DNA of 63,887 nucleotides, counting the filler, from a bacterium (GTDB taxonomy: Bacteria; JACRDZ01; JAQUKH01), in NCBI GenBank assembly GCA_028719205.1. It is 3 parts of 3 records of this genome, joined end to end, with 100 filler letters (N's around TTAATTAATTAA, not from the genome) between each part and the next. Parts side by side here need not be neighbours in the genome. Positions count along the whole stretch, not along the records: positions 1 to 25,973 come from JAQUKH010000035.1; 2 more parts are not named here. One strand, written 5' to 3'. The number at the start of each line of letters is the position of its first letter. The stretch's first letter is position 1. Below, piece after piece: positions 416-8,248 of the stretch. The position numbers and the translations under genes are program-made. The notes under the pieces were generated by a model. It saw only the letters and a list, made by a program, of their open reading frames with translations. It had not been told where the DNA came from and did no database searches.

Positions 416-419
<4 letters not shown>
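1..419 (-). mobile_element. IS1182-family insertion sequence, left part; its end abuts the attC core
   Basis: Transposase above, plus a terminal-looking GAAGCTGTCGAAAAACCCC (419-401, minus strand) directly after the GTT of the last attC. The other end is outside the window. Confidence 0.65.
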
Positions 420-1148
<729 letters not shown>

Positions 1149-1154
1149 GTTTGG

Positions 1155-1163
1155 ATTATAGCA
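1155..1163 (-). promoter_or_regulatory. Extended -10 promoter (TGCTATAAT) for the MNT-HEPN pair, probably leaderless
   Basis: TGnTATAAT lies 6 nt before the MNT ATG; no SD is present. Confidence 0.6.
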
Positions 1164-1263
1164 TTTTTTTATATTTTTATCTATGTTGATTTAAAAATCT
1201 GTATTTACCATAATTGTCGATAAAATTATAGAGTAGGGTTGGTAAGTGTTAATATTCATAACG

Positions 1264-1521
1264 TTATTTTTTTATCTTATTTTTTATTACAATTGCAGAA
1301 AATACTAATCCAATGCTTGCTAATAAATATTGTTTGCCTGCAATAAGAGCAAAAAAAGCACTCGATGAACAAAGAAAGGCTCCAGGTTTAATTAATTTTA
1401 GGCCGAAAGGTTTATATAAAACATAAGATGATATCATTCCAATAAAAAGAATAATAAATCCTAAGATTAAACATATTATGGCTATTCCGCCCAATATTAG
1501 AGGAAAATTATTAAAATTCAT
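1264..1521 (-). CDS. Small integral membrane protein (cassette 6, first gene)
   Basis: 85 aa with 2-3 hydrophobic segments; starts about 35 nt after the cassette GTT. Confidence 0.65.
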   Translation of the reverse strand: MNFNNFPLILGGIAIICLILGFIILFIGMISSYVLYKPFGLKLIKPGAFLCSSSAFFALIAGKQYLLASIGLVFSAIVIKNKIKK

Positions 1522-1549
1522 ATATATTTATGTTTTATTATTTAATTGT

Positions 1550-1608
1550 TTTTAACGTTGAAAACTCAGGCGCCGCCATAGGCGGTCGCCTGTAGTGCGA
1601 TGTTAAGA
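1550..1608 (-). other. attC site (cassette 5)
   Basis: Plus strand TTTTAAC-GTTGAAAACTCAGGCG-CCGCCATAGGCGG-TCGCCTGTAGTGCGAT-GTTAAGA. Confidence 0.88.
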
Positions 1609-1646
1609 CTTTTATTTAAACATTATCTCATCAATCTTTTTTTTAG

Positions 1647-2282
1647 CTATTGTATTTCTTTCCAAGCCCTAAAATCAAAAGTGCCACCTATCCATTGGGT
1701 ATTAGAGATATTTTCTGTTGGGGATTTAAGTACGCAATTTGTAGTATTAAATCCCATAAAAAAAGTCCCTGAGTTTTGAGAATAAAAGCCAAAATTAATA
1801 GTTGCTAATAATCCATCACCACTTACTCCCACGGTATCATTTTCACGATTAATTTCAATACTTATTTTTCTTTTATCTTTAACAGTAGTTGAAAAAGTTG
1901 TTATTCCCCCATCTTGTTTTAAGAAATCACCTTCAATGTACTTCTCGGCACTCATACCATAATAGGAAGTAGAAGTATCATAAAATATCTCTAATTTTAT
2001 ATTAGATACATGTTCAACTCTTTTTGCTCTTACTTCTATAGAAACACCTCCACCATGATGAATATGAGTAGTACCATAGCTATTATATAAATAAATTGAA
2101 TTGTTAATTGGGGTTTCATCTGGTTTAAAAGAAATAGCGTTATCATAGGAAACCTCTGGGCCATCAAAACCCCAAATAAGAAAATCACTAAAAGCTTTAT
2201 CATCTTTCTTACTACAGGAAATAAGAAAAGAAAGACTTAAAATAATTATTCCTATTAAAACAAATTCAATATTATTTTTCAT
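1647..2282 (-). CDS. Cassette lipoprotein with cohesin-like beta domain
   Basis: Lipobox-like LISC; YD...EGDFLKQDGG...GVSGDGLLATINF resembles cohesin domains. Confidence 0.65.
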   Translation of the reverse strand: MKNNIEFVLIGIIILSLSFLISCSKKDDKAFSDFLIWGFDGPEVSYDNAISFKPDETPINNSIYLYNSYGTTHIHHGGGVSIEVRAKRVEHVSNIKLEIFYDTSTSYYGMSAEKYIEGDFLKQDGGITTFSTTVKDKRKISIEINRENDTVGVSGDGLLATINFGFYSQNSGTFFMGFNTTNCVLKSPTENISNTQWIGGTFDFRAWKEIQ

Positions 2283-2327
2283 TTTTAACGAACTAGCTCA
2301 GGCGCGGCTATAAGCCGTCGCCTGAAG
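2283..2327 (-). other. attC site (cassette 4), larger fragment, interrupted by IS
   Basis: TTTTAAC...TCAGGCG-CGGCTATAAGCCG-TCGCCTGAAG. Joining it to 3727-3739 restores a family-typical attC with 9 nt between CTG and GTT. Confidence 0.85.
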
Positions 2328-2407
2328 TGATAGTATGAAAACGTGCCTACCATAGGTTATAATATTTCCGCCAAGAAAAAACAATAACCTTAAAAAAGGA
2401 GGCACGT

Positions 2408-3424
2408 ATGTATACTATCGGTTGTGATCAACACAAAAAATATTCGTATTTAGTATCGAAAGATCAGAACGGTAACACCATTGATCAACAGAAATTATAC
2501 CACTCTGATAAGGAAAAGATAAGAGATTATTTTAAGTCTGTACCAAAAGATTCAATTGTAGTTTTGGAGAGTTGCGGTTTTGATCACTGGCTGGGAGATA
2601 TGGTAGAAGAAATAGGGTTGACAGTTAAATTAGCACATACCGCAAAAACAAAAGCAATAGCCGAAGAGAAAATAAAAACTGATAAAATAAGTGCGAACGT
2701 TTTGGCGGATCTATTGAGAGCAAATATGCTACCTGAGGCTTATCGTGCGCCCCGTGAAACGAGGGATGCCCGGGCAATGATGCGATACCGGCTAAGATTA
2801 ATTTCGATAAGGACTAATTTGAAGAATAAAATTCATTCGACAATTGATTACCAAGGGATACAGCAATCTTTTACTGATTTATATGGTAAAAGCGGTAGGA
2901 TATTTTTAGCCCAGTTAAATTTAAAAGAACCCTACAATTCTATAATAAAGAATTATTTATCGATAATAGATGAATTAACTGTTCTGATAAATAAAGTAGA
3001 TGTTCACTTAAGAAAACATTTAAAAATAAATAAGGATGCTCAACTTCTTAACACAATACCGGGAATAGGTGTTATTACAACACATACGATTTTAGCTGAG
3101 ATCGGAGACATAAGCCGGTTTAAAAACAGGCACAAGCTTGCGAGATATATCGGGATAGTTCCTTCATTGCATCAGAGCGGCCAGGTTTTATATCAGGGCA
3201 GAATAACTAAGCAGGGAAATAAATATTTAAGAACAGCTTTTGTGGAAGCTGCGCATACTGCTATGAAAAATGATCCATACTTAAAAAGTCATTTTGATAA
3301 AATATGTAATAAAAAAGGGTATGGAGTCGCGATAGTAGCAGTTACGCATAAACTTGTAAAATCGGTATATAAAATTTTAACTGAAAAAGTGGAATATAGA
3401 TATAGAGCCATATATAATGGGTGA
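2408..3424 (+). CDS. IS110-family (DEDD-type) transposase/recombinase
   Basis: IGCDQHK, ESCG, KTDKISA, TIPGIG, HQSG and GRITKQGNKYLR motifs; SD AAGGAGG. Confidence 0.95.
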   Translation: MYTIGCDQHKKYSYLVSKDQNGNTIDQQKLYHSDKEKIRDYFKSVPKDSIVVLESCGFDHWLGDMVEEIGLTVKLAHTAKTKAIAEEKIKTDKISANVLADLLRANMLPEAYRAPRETRDARAMMRYRLRLISIRTNLKNKIHSTIDYQGIQQSFTDLYGKSGRIFLAQLNLKEPYNSIIKNYLSIIDELTVLINKVDVHLRKHLKINKDAQLLNTIPGIGVITTHTILAEIGDISRFKNRHKLARYIGIVPSLHQSGQVLYQGRITKQGNKYLRTAFVEAAHTAMKNDPYLKSHFDKICNKKGYGVAIVAVTHKLVKSVYKILTEKVEYRYRAIYNG

Positions 3425-3700
3425 TGCCGTTAACAAGGCTGGCATAAATAAAGGCCGTTGAAGTGATTGGCACACCCTGTCATAATTACTATTGTGCGCA
3501 AAGACAGCGCGAATGGATGAATTGGCTATATTTTTTTGTCAGCTGGAATGCTCTATATTTAAATGAATTGTGAATAGTGCCGTTCTGTTGATAATAAAAT
3601 CTTATCAACAGAACTTGGATAACTACTTCGTAGTTACCCACACTCTTCACAATATGATTATTGATATCTCTTCCTGAAAGGACGTATAGGTTATTTTTTG
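3424..3700 (+). ncRNA. Candidate bridge/seek RNA region of the IS1111-type element
   Basis: Non-coding right end with four short segments matching the target and the circle junction, plus several hairpins. Boundaries are inferred. Confidence 0.6.
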
Positions 3701-3726
3701 CTTGACAGGAGGTACGTTTTCATGGA

Positions 3727-3739
3727 CGCCTGGTTAAAA
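3727..3739 (-). other. attC site (cassette 4), R'' fragment
   Basis: CGCCTG-GTTAAAA completes the site split by the IS and complements the cassette 4 start GTTAAAA. Confidence 0.8.
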
Positions 3740-3762
3740 GTTTCTATTTACTATTAAATTAT

Positions 3763-4251
3763 TTAATTAAAATTGTTTGAATCTATTATCAATTTTATAT
3801 CTTCGGCAATCGTTGTTGTGTCAGTATACCAGTTACCTGCTGTATCAAGTAGCCTTCTGTTATCGAAGAAAGCGTTAGATTCAATATTAAATTCTTTTAA
3901 TTTTCCAACATCATCTCTTATTGTTATAGTTTTATTATAATAACTTGGAGCTTGAGATGAGGGCCCTTGTGACCAAGCCATATTTAGTGTTCTTGATTCG
4001 TTTGCAGGAATAATTTCTTCTTTATCACTGACACGTTGCTCAGGGAATTGTGAATCATTTGGTCCTTGCCAAATTGAAAATATTTCACCTGAAAAAACTT
4101 TATATTTTGCAATAATATTTTTTGATAATTTGTTTTCTATAACAAGCGTTGCACGTTCTTGACGATATTCTTTATCTCCAGCAATTCCGCAACCATTGAA
4201 AAACAAAAATACTGTTAATAAAAACATGAGCTTCAAAAAAATATTTTTCAT
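3763..4251 (-). CDS. Cassette lipoprotein, unknown function
   Basis: Signal peptide with FNGC lipobox; SD AAGGA right after the cassette GTT. Confidence 0.75.
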   Translation of the reverse strand: MKNIFLKLMFLLTVFLFFNGCGIAGDKEYRQERATLVIENKLSKNIIAKYKVFSGEIFSIWQGPNDSQFPEQRVSDKEEIIPANESRTLNMAWSQGPSSQAPSYYNKTITIRDDVGKLKEFNIESNAFFDNRRLLDTAGNWYTDTTTIAEDIKLIIDSNNFN

Positions 4252-4261
4252 TATTTTCCTT

Positions 4262-4339
4262 TTTTAACATTAGAAATCAGGGAATCGCCGAAGGGCAATC
4301 GCCTACTGGCGATCGATTTCCTGCATTGAGTTGTTGCCC
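4262..4339 (-). other. attC site (cassette 3)
   Basis: TTTTAAC...CAGGGAATCG...CGATTTCCCTG...GTTGCCC. The R'' end is the exact complement of the cassette start at 4876-4883. Confidence 0.85.
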
Positions 4340-4352
4340 GTTTCTAATTGAA

Positions 4353-4856
4353 TTATTTTATTAATTTATTTTTTATTAAATATTTTCGTCCTGTATGGGT
4401 TAAACTCCATGTATAGTAATCGTTAAAGTCGTTTGCATAGATAACATGGACTTTGTTAATTAGATTTTTTATTTTGAGTTCATTTATATAAAACTCAATA
4501 ATTGTTTCTTCTATATTTAAGAATTTTGAAATTTGTTCTGGTGTTACTTCTTGATTTGTTTGATATTTTGATAGAAATAAAAGAATTTTTATTTCAATAT
4601 CATTAAGCTTTATATATATTTTTTTAAATAACAACAGGAGGATAAAAAATGACATTAACATCAATGATAAATTGGTTTCTACCTGCAATAATAGCATTTT
4701 TAATATACGATTGGTTATTATTCCCTTGTGGAAAAAGGGTAGAAATATTTGAAGCAAGAGATAAGATATTGAAAATAAAGCTGAAAGAAACTGAATGGGA
4801 GATACACAAAATTCTTGATAAATCTTATGTACGAGGTTTATTAATTTTTTTCTCAT
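4353..4856 (-). CDS. Cassette protein, two TM segments plus winged-helix-like C-terminus
   Basis: Hydrophobic N-half; C-half EIKILLFL...ISKFLNI...FYINELKIKNLI...SLTHTGRKYL is wHTH-like. Confidence 0.6.
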   Translation of the reverse strand: MRKKLINLVHKIYQEFCVSPIQFLSALFSISYLLLQIFLPFFHKGIITNRILKMLLLQVETNLSLMLMSFFILLLLFKKIYIKLNDIEIKILLFLSKYQTNQEVTPEQISKFLNIEETIIEFYINELKIKNLINKVHVIYANDFNDYYTWSLTHTGRKYLIKNKLIK

Positions 4857-4876
4857 TTTATTTATTTATTATCTTC

Positions 4877-4958
4877 GGGCAACGCTACAAACTCAGCGGT
4901 TCTTAATGGCGGCGGTTTTTCGCCGCTATTAAGAATCCGCTGCAGTGCTTTGTTGAAA
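4877..4958 (-). other. attC site (cassette 2)
   Basis: GGGCAAC...CAGCGGTTCTTAATGGCGGCG-loop-CGCCGCTATTAAGAATCCGCTG...GTTGAAA. Confidence 0.9.
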
Positions 4959-4965
4959 ATTTAAT

Positions 4966-5757
4966 TTATTTCTGATTTTTGATTTCTTTTTTTAATTCAA
5001 TTATAGTAATTTCTTTTGGTATTTTATCAGTATCATTTTCCCAACACACGAGACACAGTGGGGATGTGTTTTTCCAACTGCCATTTTTAATTTCCTCGTG
5101 TGTAAAGATATTTGAGCTTTTATGCTCAAATTCAATATATATTGGAAAATATTTATCTTTTTTTATTTTTGATTTTATTAATGCTTTACAATCTGGGAAT
5201 TTATGTGTCCATAGTTCTTCTATAATTAAGTTATAATTATGACATAAATGTCCAAATAAAAGAATTACAGAATTTTCATTAGTAGGTTCACTAGAAAAAA
5301 TAGAATCAGTTAAAGGCTTAGGTTTATAATTTGTTTCATTGTCAGGCTCAGAAATTTGCAACATTTGCCATAATTCACTTTTGTATGTTCTTTTTCCTAC
5401 TTTTTGCCTTAGCGTAGGGTCATTTTTATATTGACTTTCTTTTGATTTTTTTTGCTTTTTTGAAAAATTTTGAGAATGAAGAAGGTCATTAGGATATTTT
5501 ATGGAATATGCTTTAGAAGTCATATTATGTTTTTTTTCTAAATGTCCACCTGACAAACGAGAACATTTTTCTTTACATATTTGACATACAACGTAGTCTT
5601 CACCCTCATTAAAAGCAGAGCCATGTTTTTCCATGAAATCATAGTAATTAGTTTTATGGGAATTAGGTATGTGGAAATATTTAAAGCCTTCTTCTGTCAT
5701 TGTAGTTTTACATTCAGGGCATGTAATAAGTTGATTGCTTTTTGATTTATTTGTCAT
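4966..5757 (-). CDS. Zn-finger plus PD-(D/E)xK restriction-endonuclease-like protein (cassette 2)
   Basis: CPEC..H..H and CQIC...HLEKKH (Ros/MucR-like) fingers; C-terminal PTNE...FPDC...IEFEHKS...LVCWE nuclease-like motif. Confidence 0.6.
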   Translation of the reverse strand: MTNKSKSNQLITCPECKTTMTEEGFKYFHIPNSHKTNYYDFMEKHGSAFNEGEDYVVCQICKEKCSRLSGGHLEKKHNMTSKAYSIKYPNDLLHSQNFSKKQKKSKESQYKNDPTLRQKVGKRTYKSELWQMLQISEPDNETNYKPKPLTDSIFSSEPTNENSVILLFGHLCHNYNLIIEELWTHKFPDCKALIKSKIKKDKYFPIYIEFEHKSSNIFTHEEIKNGSWKNTSPLCLVCWENDTDKIPKEITIIELKKEIKNQK

Positions 5758-5815
5758 ATTATGTATTTCCTTACTTTCATTTCGGTATATTTATCTAATA
5801 CCTATTTAATCAATA

Positions 5816-6238
5816 TTATTCTATTACAAAACAAGGAATCTCTTTCATTATTTTATCAATTATTATATTACAATATTCTATCCCTTCAAGATTTATTTTC
5901 GGCGCCATAATTTCTTTGTAAAAATGATTGGTGTAGTATGGAGACCTATAAGGTATATAAATTAACGCGTCTAGAGGCATATCTTGTGAAGGTGGTATTG
6001 TTTCAAATTTGATTTTTAAAAATCCAAATATTTCTGTAAAATTTTTTACCCATTCAATGGGTTCCGTTTCAATGTCAGGAGAGGATATTACAAGAGGTGC
6101 ATCCAGAAGTAAATTAATAGTTCCGGTATGATAACTATCAATATTAGGTATATATTTTTTAAAAAATGGCTTTTGTTTTGGAATATTAATACTTGATGCT
6201 GCCCCGAAACCTTTTTGTATTTTTCCTTTTATTTTCAT
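5816..6238 (-). CDS. CTP-dependent riboflavin-kinase-like fold protein (cassette 2)
   Basis: KGKIQKGFGAA and YHTGTINL resemble archaeal RFK motifs (G.V.SG.G.G and YPGTLN). Start moved to ATG 6238 because TTG 6253 lies inside the attC core. Confidence 0.5.
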   Translation of the reverse strand: MKIKGKIQKGFGAASSINIPKQKPFFKKYIPNIDSYHTGTINLLLDAPLVISSPDIETEPIEWVKNFTEIFGFLKIKFETIPPSQDMPLDALIYIPYRSPYYTNHFYKEIMAPKINLEGIEYCNIIIDKIMKEIPCFVIE

Positions 6239-6247
6239 TATATTATT

Positions 6248-6322
6248 TTTCAACGATGAAGTTCAGGGAGCCGGCGAAGCGAACCCCCGAAGGGGGCGGG
6301 TTCCTGCAACGCCTTGTTAGCC
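6248..6322 (-). other. attC site (cassette 1)
   Basis: TTTCAAC...CAGGGAGCC...CCCCCGAAGGGGG...GGTTCCTG...GTTAGCC. The end complements the attI-side start CGGCTAAC. Confidence 0.88.
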
Positions 6323-6883: not shown

Positions 6884-6937
6884 ACCCTGAAATACGAAGT
6901 TCGCTTTTTGGGGGAAATTTGTCATTTTGAGGATTTT

Positions 6938-8248
6938 ATGCTGGATAATATACTGCCTGAATACCAGAAATATTTAATTTTAAATAAGCTGGTTCCTGAA
7001 AAAAATATTCAGTTTTACGCCTTATGGGTGAGTAAATTTTTGTCATTTTCAAACAGGAATGATAATATTGTGTTTGAAAATAGAATGAATAAGTTTTTAG
7101 AGTTATTATCCGGCGATGAGGCAATAAAAGACTGGCAGATAGCGCAAGCAGAAACGGCTTTGAATTTATATGTTAATAATTTTCTTAAAGGCAACAAATC
7201 GTTAATCGATCCGGATTGTAACAGCAAAAACAGCCGATTAGACGGCTTTAATTCTATAATAAATAAATTACGCGAATTAATACGTTTAAAACATTATTCA
7301 TACAGCACGGAGCAGACTTATATTGAATGGGCAAAAAAATTTCATAAATATATTTTAGAGTCAAAAGAAAATAAATTTGAAATAGATAAATTATCTTCAA
7401 ATGATGTCCAGAATTATTTAAGCCATCTGGCATTGAAGCAAAGGGTGTCATCTTCAACACAGAACCAGGCGTTTAACGCCCTGGTTTTTTTATTTAAAAA
7501 TGTTTTGGGAATTGAACTTAACGGCCTTAATGATACAGTCAGGGCAAAACGGGGGCAAAAACTTCCTGTTGTACTGACGGTTGAAGAAGTACAGGAACTG
7601 TTTAAACATATAGAAGGCAAAAACCTTCTTATTATTCAATTATTATATGGTTCAGGTCTAAGACTTATGGAACTGGCACGATTAAGGGTAAAGGATATTG
7701 ATTTTAATTCTAATTTGTTATTTGTGCGAAGCGGCAAAGGAGATAAAGACAGGTCGACTATTCTTCCTGAATTTGTTAAAAAAGATTTAAAATTATATCT
7801 GGATAAAGTTAAAACGCTTCATGATAAAGATATTAAAGAGGGATATGGAGAAGTTTATCTCCCAAACGCGTTAGAGCGGAAATACCCAAATGCCTCAAAA
7901 GACTGGGGATGGCAGTGTGTTTTCCCGGCAGAAAGGCTTTCGGTTGATCCGCGAAGCGGCAAAATCAGAAGGCACCATATAAGCGATAAAACTATACAGA
8001 ATATTGTCAGGGAAGGCGTAAGAAAAGCGGGTATAATAAAAAGCGCGACTGTGCATACTCTGAGGCATAGTTTTGCGACGCATCTTCTGATGAACGGTGT
8101 TAATATAAGAGAAGTGCAGGACCTGCTGGGGCATAAGAAACTTGAAACAACGATGATTTATACTCATGTTATGCGGGACATGTCAAACGCGCCGAAGAGC
8201 CCGCTGGATATGTTGTATGGAAAAATGAATGAGGAAAATAAAATTTAA
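6938..8248 (+). CDS. intI: Integron integrase, long N-terminal form
   Basis: Tyrosine recombinase residues (GLRLME, GKGDK, HTLRHSF, GHK, TTMIY) plus the IntI-specific insertion VYLPNALERKYP...WQCVFPA...VDPRSG..RRHH. Likely start ATG 6938 after GAGG. Confidence 0.96.
   Translation: MLDNILPEYQKYLILNKLVPEKNIQFYALWVSKFLSFSNRNDNIVFENRMNKFLELLSGDEAIKDWQIAQAETALNLYVNNFLKGNKSLIDPDCNSKNSRLDGFNSIINKLRELIRLKHYSYSTEQTYIEWAKKFHKYILESKENKFEIDKLSSNDVQNYLSHLALKQRVSSSTQNQAFNALVFLFKNVLGIELNGLNDTVRAKRGQKLPVVLTVEEVQELFKHIEGKNLLIIQLLYGSGLRLMELARLRVKDIDFNSNLLFVRSGKGDKDRSTILPEFVKKDLKLYLDKVKTLHDKDIKEGYGEVYLPNALERKYPNASKDWGWQCVFPAERLSVDPRSGKIRRHHISDKTIQNIVREGVRKAGIIKSATVHTLRHSFATHLLMNGVNIREVQDLLGHKKLETTMIYTHVMRDMSNAPKSPLDMLYGKMNEENKI

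Follow-up and report, generated by a model that had tools for sequence, protein, structure and literature searches.

We describe here an insertion sequence (IS) of the IS1111 type that interrupts an attC of an integron in a stretch of bacterial DNA of 63,887 nucleotides (nt), hereafter the window, which was joined from parts of three records of assembly GCA_028719205.1; the element lies in the part taken from JAQUKH010000035.1. Very probably this is an RNA-guided insertion sequence of the IS1111 group, whose RNA would join the circle junction to the attC so that the recombinase can exchange strands at the core. The anatomy of the element, the structure of its RNA and the covariation of four guide words with the flanks and ends of related elements are shown by sequence analysis and are laid out first. 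The mechanism as such is already known, and the new part is modest, namely its occurrence in a distant, undescribed lineage. The features on which the argument is built are the following, all on the + strand.

2328-3726, +: IS1111-type insertion sequence, 1399 bp; ends placed from the subterminal inverted repeats, the relatives and the sister attC
2328-2334, +: left terminal extension of 7 nt; its first two bases, TG, are the core, and 2330-2334 are the right-donor word that the RNA would read
2335-2348, +: left subterminal inverted repeat; 13 of 14 bases complementary to 3710-3723
3710-3723, +: right subterminal inverted repeat, followed by a 3-nt extension (3724-3726)
2408-3424, +: transposase gene, 338 amino acids; PF01548 and PF02371; D7, E54, D92, S257 and G258 conserved
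2283-2327, +: portion of the interrupted attC to the left of the IS, ending in the left-target word (5 nt, 2323-2327)
3727-3739, +: right part of the interrupted attC, with CG at the core position (3727-3728), a spacer and the R box (3733-3739), which starts at +7 of the right flank
3419-3530, +: predicted bridge/seekRNA of about 110 nt, comprising two loops in this order, one target-binding (3419-3477) and one donor-binding (3479-3526)
3419-3423 with 3473-3477: helix P1
3425-3428 with 3469-3472: helix P2
3440-3443 with 3454-3457: helix P3
3479-3482 with 3523-3526: helix P5
3495-3499 with 3507-3511: helix P6
3430-3439, +: right-target guide (segment 1), a 9/10 reverse-complement match to the right flank
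3459-3467, +: left-target guide (segment 2), identical to 2323-2331, that is, 5 nt of left target (2323-2327), the core (3464-3465) and 2 nt more
3488-3492, +: right-donor guide (segment 3), the conserved 5 nt of 3487-3492, which is the reverse complement of 2330-2335
3513-3520, +: left-donor guide (segment 4), 5 nt equal to the last 5 nt of the IS (3722-3726), the core (3518-3519) and 1 nt more

Protein and ends both place the element in the IS1111 group. The transposase scored 221.8 bits against the NCBIfam model NF033542 "IS110 family RNA-guided transposase" (cut-off 140), joins an N-terminal DEDD_Tnp_IS110 domain (PF01548) to a C-terminal Transposase_20 domain (PF02371) within the length range of the group (338 amino acids; range 330-350), and carries the P----SG motif, of which S257 and G258 are invariant or nearly so. 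Beyond the subterminal repeats lie 7 nt on the left and 3 nt on the right, which is the end layout of the group, and the start of the element is invariant in the nine relatives that retain a left end. Non-coding DNA amounts to 80 nt 5' and 302 nt 3' of the gene, the longer side being downstream as in other IS1111 members. A placement of the boundaries around a GA core was tried and rejected in favour of those first proposed from the sequence by an earlier model-made annotation of the window (the sequence-only reading), on the ground that the latter agree with the left-donor guide and the 7-nt/3-nt layout.

The same reading had held that removal of 2328-3726 restores an attC, and fold as well as similarity bear this out: excision in silico leaves a 58-nt site with the canonical attC fold (7-bp outer stem, bulged inner stem, -17.2 kcal/mol), which is identical to the intact attC at 1550-1608 in 45 of 61 aligned columns. 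Altogether the window holds six attCs, the occupied one and five intact ones within 417-6322, and it is the occupied one that gives the best guide match (14/15 versus 10-12/15 for the others). Six nucleotides separate the insertion point from the GTT of the R box on its 3' side; in the cassette sense, this is close to the 5' end of the attC. Since the integron integrase gene (IntI) and the transposase gene share one strand, the IS is antisense to the cassettes. The host integron is chromosomal. Landing position and orientation are those of the classical proteobacterial IS1111-attC group, which was reportedly described by Tetu and Holmes in 2008.

Beginning at the end of the transposase gene, the four segments follow one another as proposed from the sequence alone, and segments 1, 2 and 4 were found in place with the matches claimed for them; segment 4, for instance, joins the final five bases of the element to its initial three. 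Segment 3 is where it was said to be (3487-3492), its conserved part being 5 nt rather than the full six. The segment pairing with the top strand (segment 1) precedes that pairing with the bottom strand (segment 2), which is the order of IS1111 seekRNAs. The earlier observation that the segment 1 word also matches the attC at 6311-6319 holds as well: the 9-mer 3431-3439 has this single further occurrence in the window, on the minus strand (0.70 expected; two or more in 12/100 shuffles), but only 3/5 bases of the left-target word are found at that attC. The proposal of an element programmed for the attC family of its host is thus right in that the occupied attC is fitted best, and too strong in that the fit is loose, with one A-G mismatch in the right-target guide and a C for T at the first core base. 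Taken alone, the window is weak evidence for guides, and on its own the 6-mer of segment 3 falls short of significance; the finding stands above chance because the guides covary in related elements and because the RNA is structured.

Scans with the transposase returned 18 loci from genomes and 60 from metagenomes, among which eleven elements of 64-71% identity possess a homologous 3' region (L001a, L001b, L002, L003, L011, L019, L020, L021, L022, L024 and L025; L023 and L029 are copies of L001a and were excluded from this set). The integron setting recurs in these relatives. A GTT box stands at +7 in all eight that have enough right flank, an inverse box restoring an attC-like hairpin was found in four of six with enough left flank as well as in the window (the search missed L021 and L003 at its threshold, L022 has too little left flank and the right flank of L020 is too short), and IntI homologues adjoin L002 (52% over 427 amino acids) and L003 (a 66-amino-acid piece).

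Comparing guides with ends and flanks in homologous elements had been suggested as a check, and the outcome is that the guide words of an element vary in step with its own flanks and ends. In 11/11 elements the left-donor word is identical to the final five bases of the same element; two such words exist in the clade, the third base being G in five and A in six elements and matching the respective end each time. Of the left-target word there are three forms, which fit the own left flank at 5/5 positions in 7/10 elements and less well in L019 and L022 (4/5) and L003 (3/5). The right-target guide forms 7-11 Watson-Crick pairs of 10-11 in the eleven elements, and its bases opposite target positions +3 and +4 covary with the target. 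For the right-donor word, five Watson-Crick pairs were counted in 6/10 elements, four plus a wobble in 3/10 and one mismatch in L021, with C or U in the guide tracking G or A at the sixth base of the left end. When guides were permuted among the nine complete elements, the observed score was reached in 11/20000 cases for the target guides and in 80/20000 for the donor guides. More distant clades have different guides, which match different, non-attC flanks; an automatic scan of all clades gave matches to own words in 12/26, 19/24 and 16/29 cases and to the words of others in 73/936, 154/864 and 139/1044, figures that are rough as left ends were misplaced (at least in L011, L019, L034 and L038) and L023 and L029 were counted.

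Two members of this set deserve mention in their own right. The transposase gene of L003 (2359-3477) is internally deleted, RNA and both ends are kept, and the target guides fit the flanks poorly (3/5 and 7/11); L003 is possibly a non-autonomous derivative moved in trans. In L022, the region of the left-target guide (1220-1240) contains a 5-nt tandem duplication of the target word.

The fold of the guide RNA at 3419-3530 is backed by compensatory changes in five helices. P2 and P3 enclose an internal loop whose two strands are segments 1 and 2; likewise, segments 3 and 4 are the strands of the loop enclosed by P5 and P6. In a MAFFT alignment of 12 sequences, 94.7% of the cells pair and 6/22 pairs show a compensatory change, a result that 0/500 shuffles reach, and partners slid against each other pair in 26-41% of the cells. 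RNAalifold recovers the same five helices unaided. They also appear when the window RNA (3417-3530) is folded as a single sequence (z -2.67; 1/200 shuffles as good), and a fold of 3422-3545, the start of which was poorly chosen, was uninformative (z -0.72). A covariance model built from the alignment yielded 37 matches in 79 sources, all of them on the transposase strand, with a single match in the window, and wherever a transposase match was recorded, the model match lies directly 3' of the gene; compensatory changes in 20/22 pairs were counted in the model-fitted alignment, a figure from an alignment fitted to the covariance model itself. For the RNA, the range 3424-3530 had been proposed, of which the end stands and the start does not, as the RNA begins at 3419, inside the last two transposase codons. 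Overall, the first proposal of an IS1111 element in an attC with target and donor guides is upheld, the segments behaving as the four guides of one structured RNA.

The two left guides share a final UG, which corresponds to the first two bases of the IS, and in 10/10 relatives of the clade the right flank begins with the same two bases (TG). Other clades keep this core rule with other dinucleotides, GG and AG (right flanks among L001-L043).

Taken together in a model, an RNA of about 110 nt with two internal loops (3419-3530), encoded directly 3' of the transposase gene, would bring the circle junction and the attC together. The 3' strand of its target loop (3459-3465) would pair with the bottom strand left of the insertion point and across the 2-nt core, the DEDD/Ser recombinase would then exchange strands at the core, and the IS would thereby come to lie 6 nt 5' of the GTT of the R box and antisense to the cassettes. 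For the production of the RNA, its binding by the transposase, the formation of the circle and the chemistry of strand exchange we infer from published work on ISEc11, ISKpn4 and IS621 that the element may behave analogously. Further features that bear on the state of this copy, or on its surroundings, are these.

2335-2363, +: promoter-like site in the left end, upstream of the transposase gene; 10/12 consensus matches with a 17-nt spacer, a consensus match only
3702-3707, +: -35-like hexamer at a distance of 19 nt from the end of the IS, presumably belonging to a circle-junction promoter
3531-3537, +: run of seven T after the closing helix, which may mark the 3' end of the RNA
3567-3653, +: Y-shaped structured insert of 87 nt in the non-coding region of the IS; fold z -8.81; absent from the relatives
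6908-8248, +: integron integrase gene IntI (context), on the same strand as the transposase gene; TIGR02249, 428 bits versus a cut-off of 265

Several observations weigh against the RNA-guided reading of this element. Exact words of nine or more bases shared with a junction arise in 152/2000 shuffles of the non-coding DNA 3425-3700, and words of eight or more in 539/2000. The right-target guide of this copy contains the A-G mismatch, its right flank has CG at the core (3727-3728) and not TG, and its presumed junction promoter (3702-3726 joined to 2328-2336, the -10-like hexamer being bases 4-9 of the left end) would have a spacer of 22 nt in the circle. The elements compared are related, so that the permutation figures overstate independence. 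RNAalifold adds a short helix between segments 3 and 4, and the free RNA may therefore close its donor loop. Finally, D7, E54 and D92 of the DEDD residues are present and the fourth position, which IS621 requires as D105, is occupied by Ser (S95, codon 2690-2692; the domain alignment with IS621 is weak by E-value and is anchored on the K-T-D motif). Mutation of D105 abolished recombination by IS621 (PMC11208158). Among 121 aligned homologues, 72 have Ser and 49 Asp at this position; nearly all of the closest ~60 have Ser, which is a clade-wide trait and includes elements from several contexts.

In a rival reading, the family mechanism holds and the present copy is a stranded, immobile relic, disabled by the core mismatch, a mis-spaced promoter and the 87-nt insert, which we regard as unlikely. 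In its favour are a right flank of CG versus TG in 10/10 relatives, a junction-promoter spacer of 22 nt versus 17 or 18 nt in the five relatives for which it was computed (about 17 nt by eye in the remaining ones), the extra structured insert at 3567-3653, and the contigs of four sequencing runs (contigs only), which contain neither a circle-junction joint nor an empty-site joint. Yet the reading frame, both ends and the full set of four guides are undamaged, a promoter-like site is present within the left end itself, and other contigs encode proteins that share a 90%-identity cluster with the transposase (97% identity for the cluster representative). Moreover, a second contig in run X1 has the right end beside a flank that is similar to that of the window without being identical (6 differences). 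The contigs of the four runs also include fragments of related copies and one intact attC-like continuation (run X3); an exact search of the genome contigs for the right end of the IS gave no match. As for the core, the guide U can form a wobble pair with the G opposite that C, and the targets printed for ISKpn4, ISPst6 and ISPa25 likewise have CG at the core position (PMC13604230, Table 1 in the text available). TG on the left together with CG on the right would follow from a crossover left of the core or from a staggered exchange across a mismatched core, the latter having been described for IS621 (PMC11208158).

A narrower objection concerns the donor loop. Segment 3 might be no guide to DNA at all and be conserved through its pairing with segment 4, the left end being recognised by the protein via the subterminal repeat; we hold this to be quite improbable. 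The helix predicted by RNAalifold (columns 84-87 with 132-135, showing one-sided changes only) speaks for such a role inside the RNA, as does the near-invariance of the left end, due to which the covariation rests on one position; in addition, the 6-mer does not reach significance within the window, and in many IS1111 RNAs the donor-binding bases are described as lying in less simple loops (accessible part of PMC11208160). At the variable position, however, a C in the guide meets a G at the end in 5/5 elements and a U meets an A in 4/5, the fifth being a wobble, a pattern that pairing inside the RNA with an invariant G does not predict, and the donor permutation test favours the elements' own pairings (80/20000). 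That the matches are due to chance and the conserved 3' region is merely a terminator or translational control element of the transposase gene is hardly credible: word matches within the window are not rare in shuffles and no Rfam family was found in 2000-4000, but the guide words differ among elements following their own flanks and ends, five helices covary, and published RNAs of the IS1111 family behave alike.

An RNA-guided insertion into the attC also agrees with what is known from other systems. According to Siddiquee et al. 2024 (PMC11187229), ISKpn4 and ISPst6 produce seekRNAs from their 3' regions that are recovered together with the purified transposases, and in a seekRNA the match to the top strand of the target lies 5' of that to the bottom strand. 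The targets of ISKpn4, ISPst6 and ISPa25 printed in PMC13604230 (Table 1) place the insertion between ...GA(A/G) and CG, 6 nt 5' of the GTT box. The window element resembles these three in having its RNA directly 3' of the transposase gene, the top-strand match first and one end of an attC as target. It differs in its readable, covarying donor loop, the role of the long RNA form having been left open in PMC11187229, and in the UG core of its guides, as judged from published descriptions and printed targets. Left and right guides for target and donor were defined in PMC11208160, the available part of which also reports bridge RNAs predicted in the right end of 93% of IS1111 elements.

According to the text of PMC3001079 accessible to us, ISPa21 and ISPst6 sit near the 5' end of attCs, antisense to the cassettes, and form a monophyletic subgroup; the position and orientation that define IS1111-attC insertions there are those of the window element. 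The copy of ISPa21 on plasmid NZ_CP041734.1, used here as reference, likewise interrupts an attC, runs antisense to the cassettes and shares its strand with intI, with the 7-nt/3-nt end layout and an R box starting at +7 of the right flank. The layout of the target loop is shared as well, and this loop is the best match of covariance model R1 in 22 kb, a weak one obtained with filters off (12.1 bits, E 0.58). In contrast, its transposase is 19% identical to that of the window, which is no closer than that of IS4321, an element targeting Tn21 ends (23%); its guides carry a CG core instead of UG, the subterminal repeats are unrelated in sequence, and Asp instead of Ser occupies the fourth DEDD position. 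In this ISPa21 copy, the CG of the guides is seen at neither junction.

With IS621, the window element shares a single RNA with target- and donor-binding internal loops, each reading both strands (Durrant et al. 2024, PMC11208160; Hiraizumi et al. 2024, PMC11208158), the same division of strands (bottom for the left guides, top for the right ones), left guides that also read a 2-nt core, and a recombinase consisting of a RuvC-like and a Tnp domain with a Ser-Gly nucleophile. Unlike in IS621, where the RNA is encoded 5' of the gene in the left end and the left guide comes first, the RNA of the window element is encoded downstream of its gene and opens each loop with the right guide; its right guides cover at most one core base, its subterminal repeats are long, and the residue aligned with D105 is Ser. 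ISEc11, an IS1111-family element likened here by description only, is said in the accessible text of bioRxiv 10.1101/2024.04.26.591405 to have a 7-nt left extension that shares its first bases with the right flank, these bases being read as an overlap and not as a duplication. Its transposase has about 339 amino acids, and its target, unlike that of the window element, is linear and not an attC.

As to descent, a tree of 28 transposases unites the eight attC-inserted relatives in one clade (100/99), the sister of which (L026) has another target, as have the wider neighbours, a nesting that suggests a separate origin of attC targeting. ISPa21 falls across a branch supported by 100/99, and the label "attC" needs at least two changes on the tree, which comprises one IS1111-attC reference (ISPa21), long branches, a biased composition of ISPa21 and a midpoint root. 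The transposase does not group in one clade with ISPa21 and ISPst6 (19% identity; tree), and because of these caveats of the tree we describe the element as working like the IS1111-attC group without filing it in that clade. The chances seem to us evenly balanced that attC targeting arose at least twice within IS1111, such that a lineage of uncultured anaerobes retargeted its guide RNA to the same attC position and orientation with a functional recombinase carrying Ser in place of the fourth DEDD residue. The named relatives of this lineage are from Omnitrophota and Syntrophaceae genomes. A literature search on IS1111, seekRNA, attC and Omnitrophota integrons or IS110 elements returned nothing on this lineage; one preprint mentions Omnitrophota IS110 transposases in passing.

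As the mechanism has been textbook knowledge since 2024, the finding mainly confirms that guide words are readable from raw sequence. Beyond this, it offers a set of naturally varying IS1111-type RNAs in which covariation can be followed in the scaffold and in each of the four guides. The set extends to the donor loop, to which the seekRNA paper assigned no definite role (PMC11187229). Moreover, a distant lineage found at the identical attC position bears on why this spot is favoured and on how often the integrons of uncultured bacteria were invaded, and the compact 338-amino-acid recombinase clade with its changed catalytic tetrad is directly testable. Two points merit further attention: attC targeting may have originated independently, and the catalytic tetrad occurs here in a Ser variant.

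Some minor features of the locus and its relatives may be added. The integrase open reading frame as listed starts with TTG and has about 116 residues (window 6908-7255) before the part matched by the model (residues 117-436), and the true start of IntI may lie downstream of the listed TTG. The T run at 3531-3537 was not called in a terminator scan. A second copy of the insert 3567-3653 was found neither in the window nor in loci L001-L078. The sole Rfam match within 2000-4000, to the CPEB3 ribozyme, lies inside the coding region and was dismissed as chance (17.3 bits versus a gathering score of 35). Some related copies in runs X2 and X3 carry a GC-rich palindromic insertion of 17-19 nt (window 2405 and 2604-2836), and one of the palindrome-bearing copies has in addition a 231-nt deletion inside the transposase gene.

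In L027 (~2690-2714) and L028 (~2684-2743), the non-coding region of a 53%-identical IS is present a second time, directly after the right end. The repeated stretch begins with the sequence coding for the left-donor guide; it looks as though the IS had recombined with the DNA for its own guide, a mimic of the circle junction. Members of a clade of 45-48% identity (L004/L035, L032, L034, L039, L061 and L076) are inserted between the A and the TG of apparent downstream start codons; the ATG is rebuilt by the final base of the IS, and just inside the end stands a TTGACA (by eye, at 6/8 loci).

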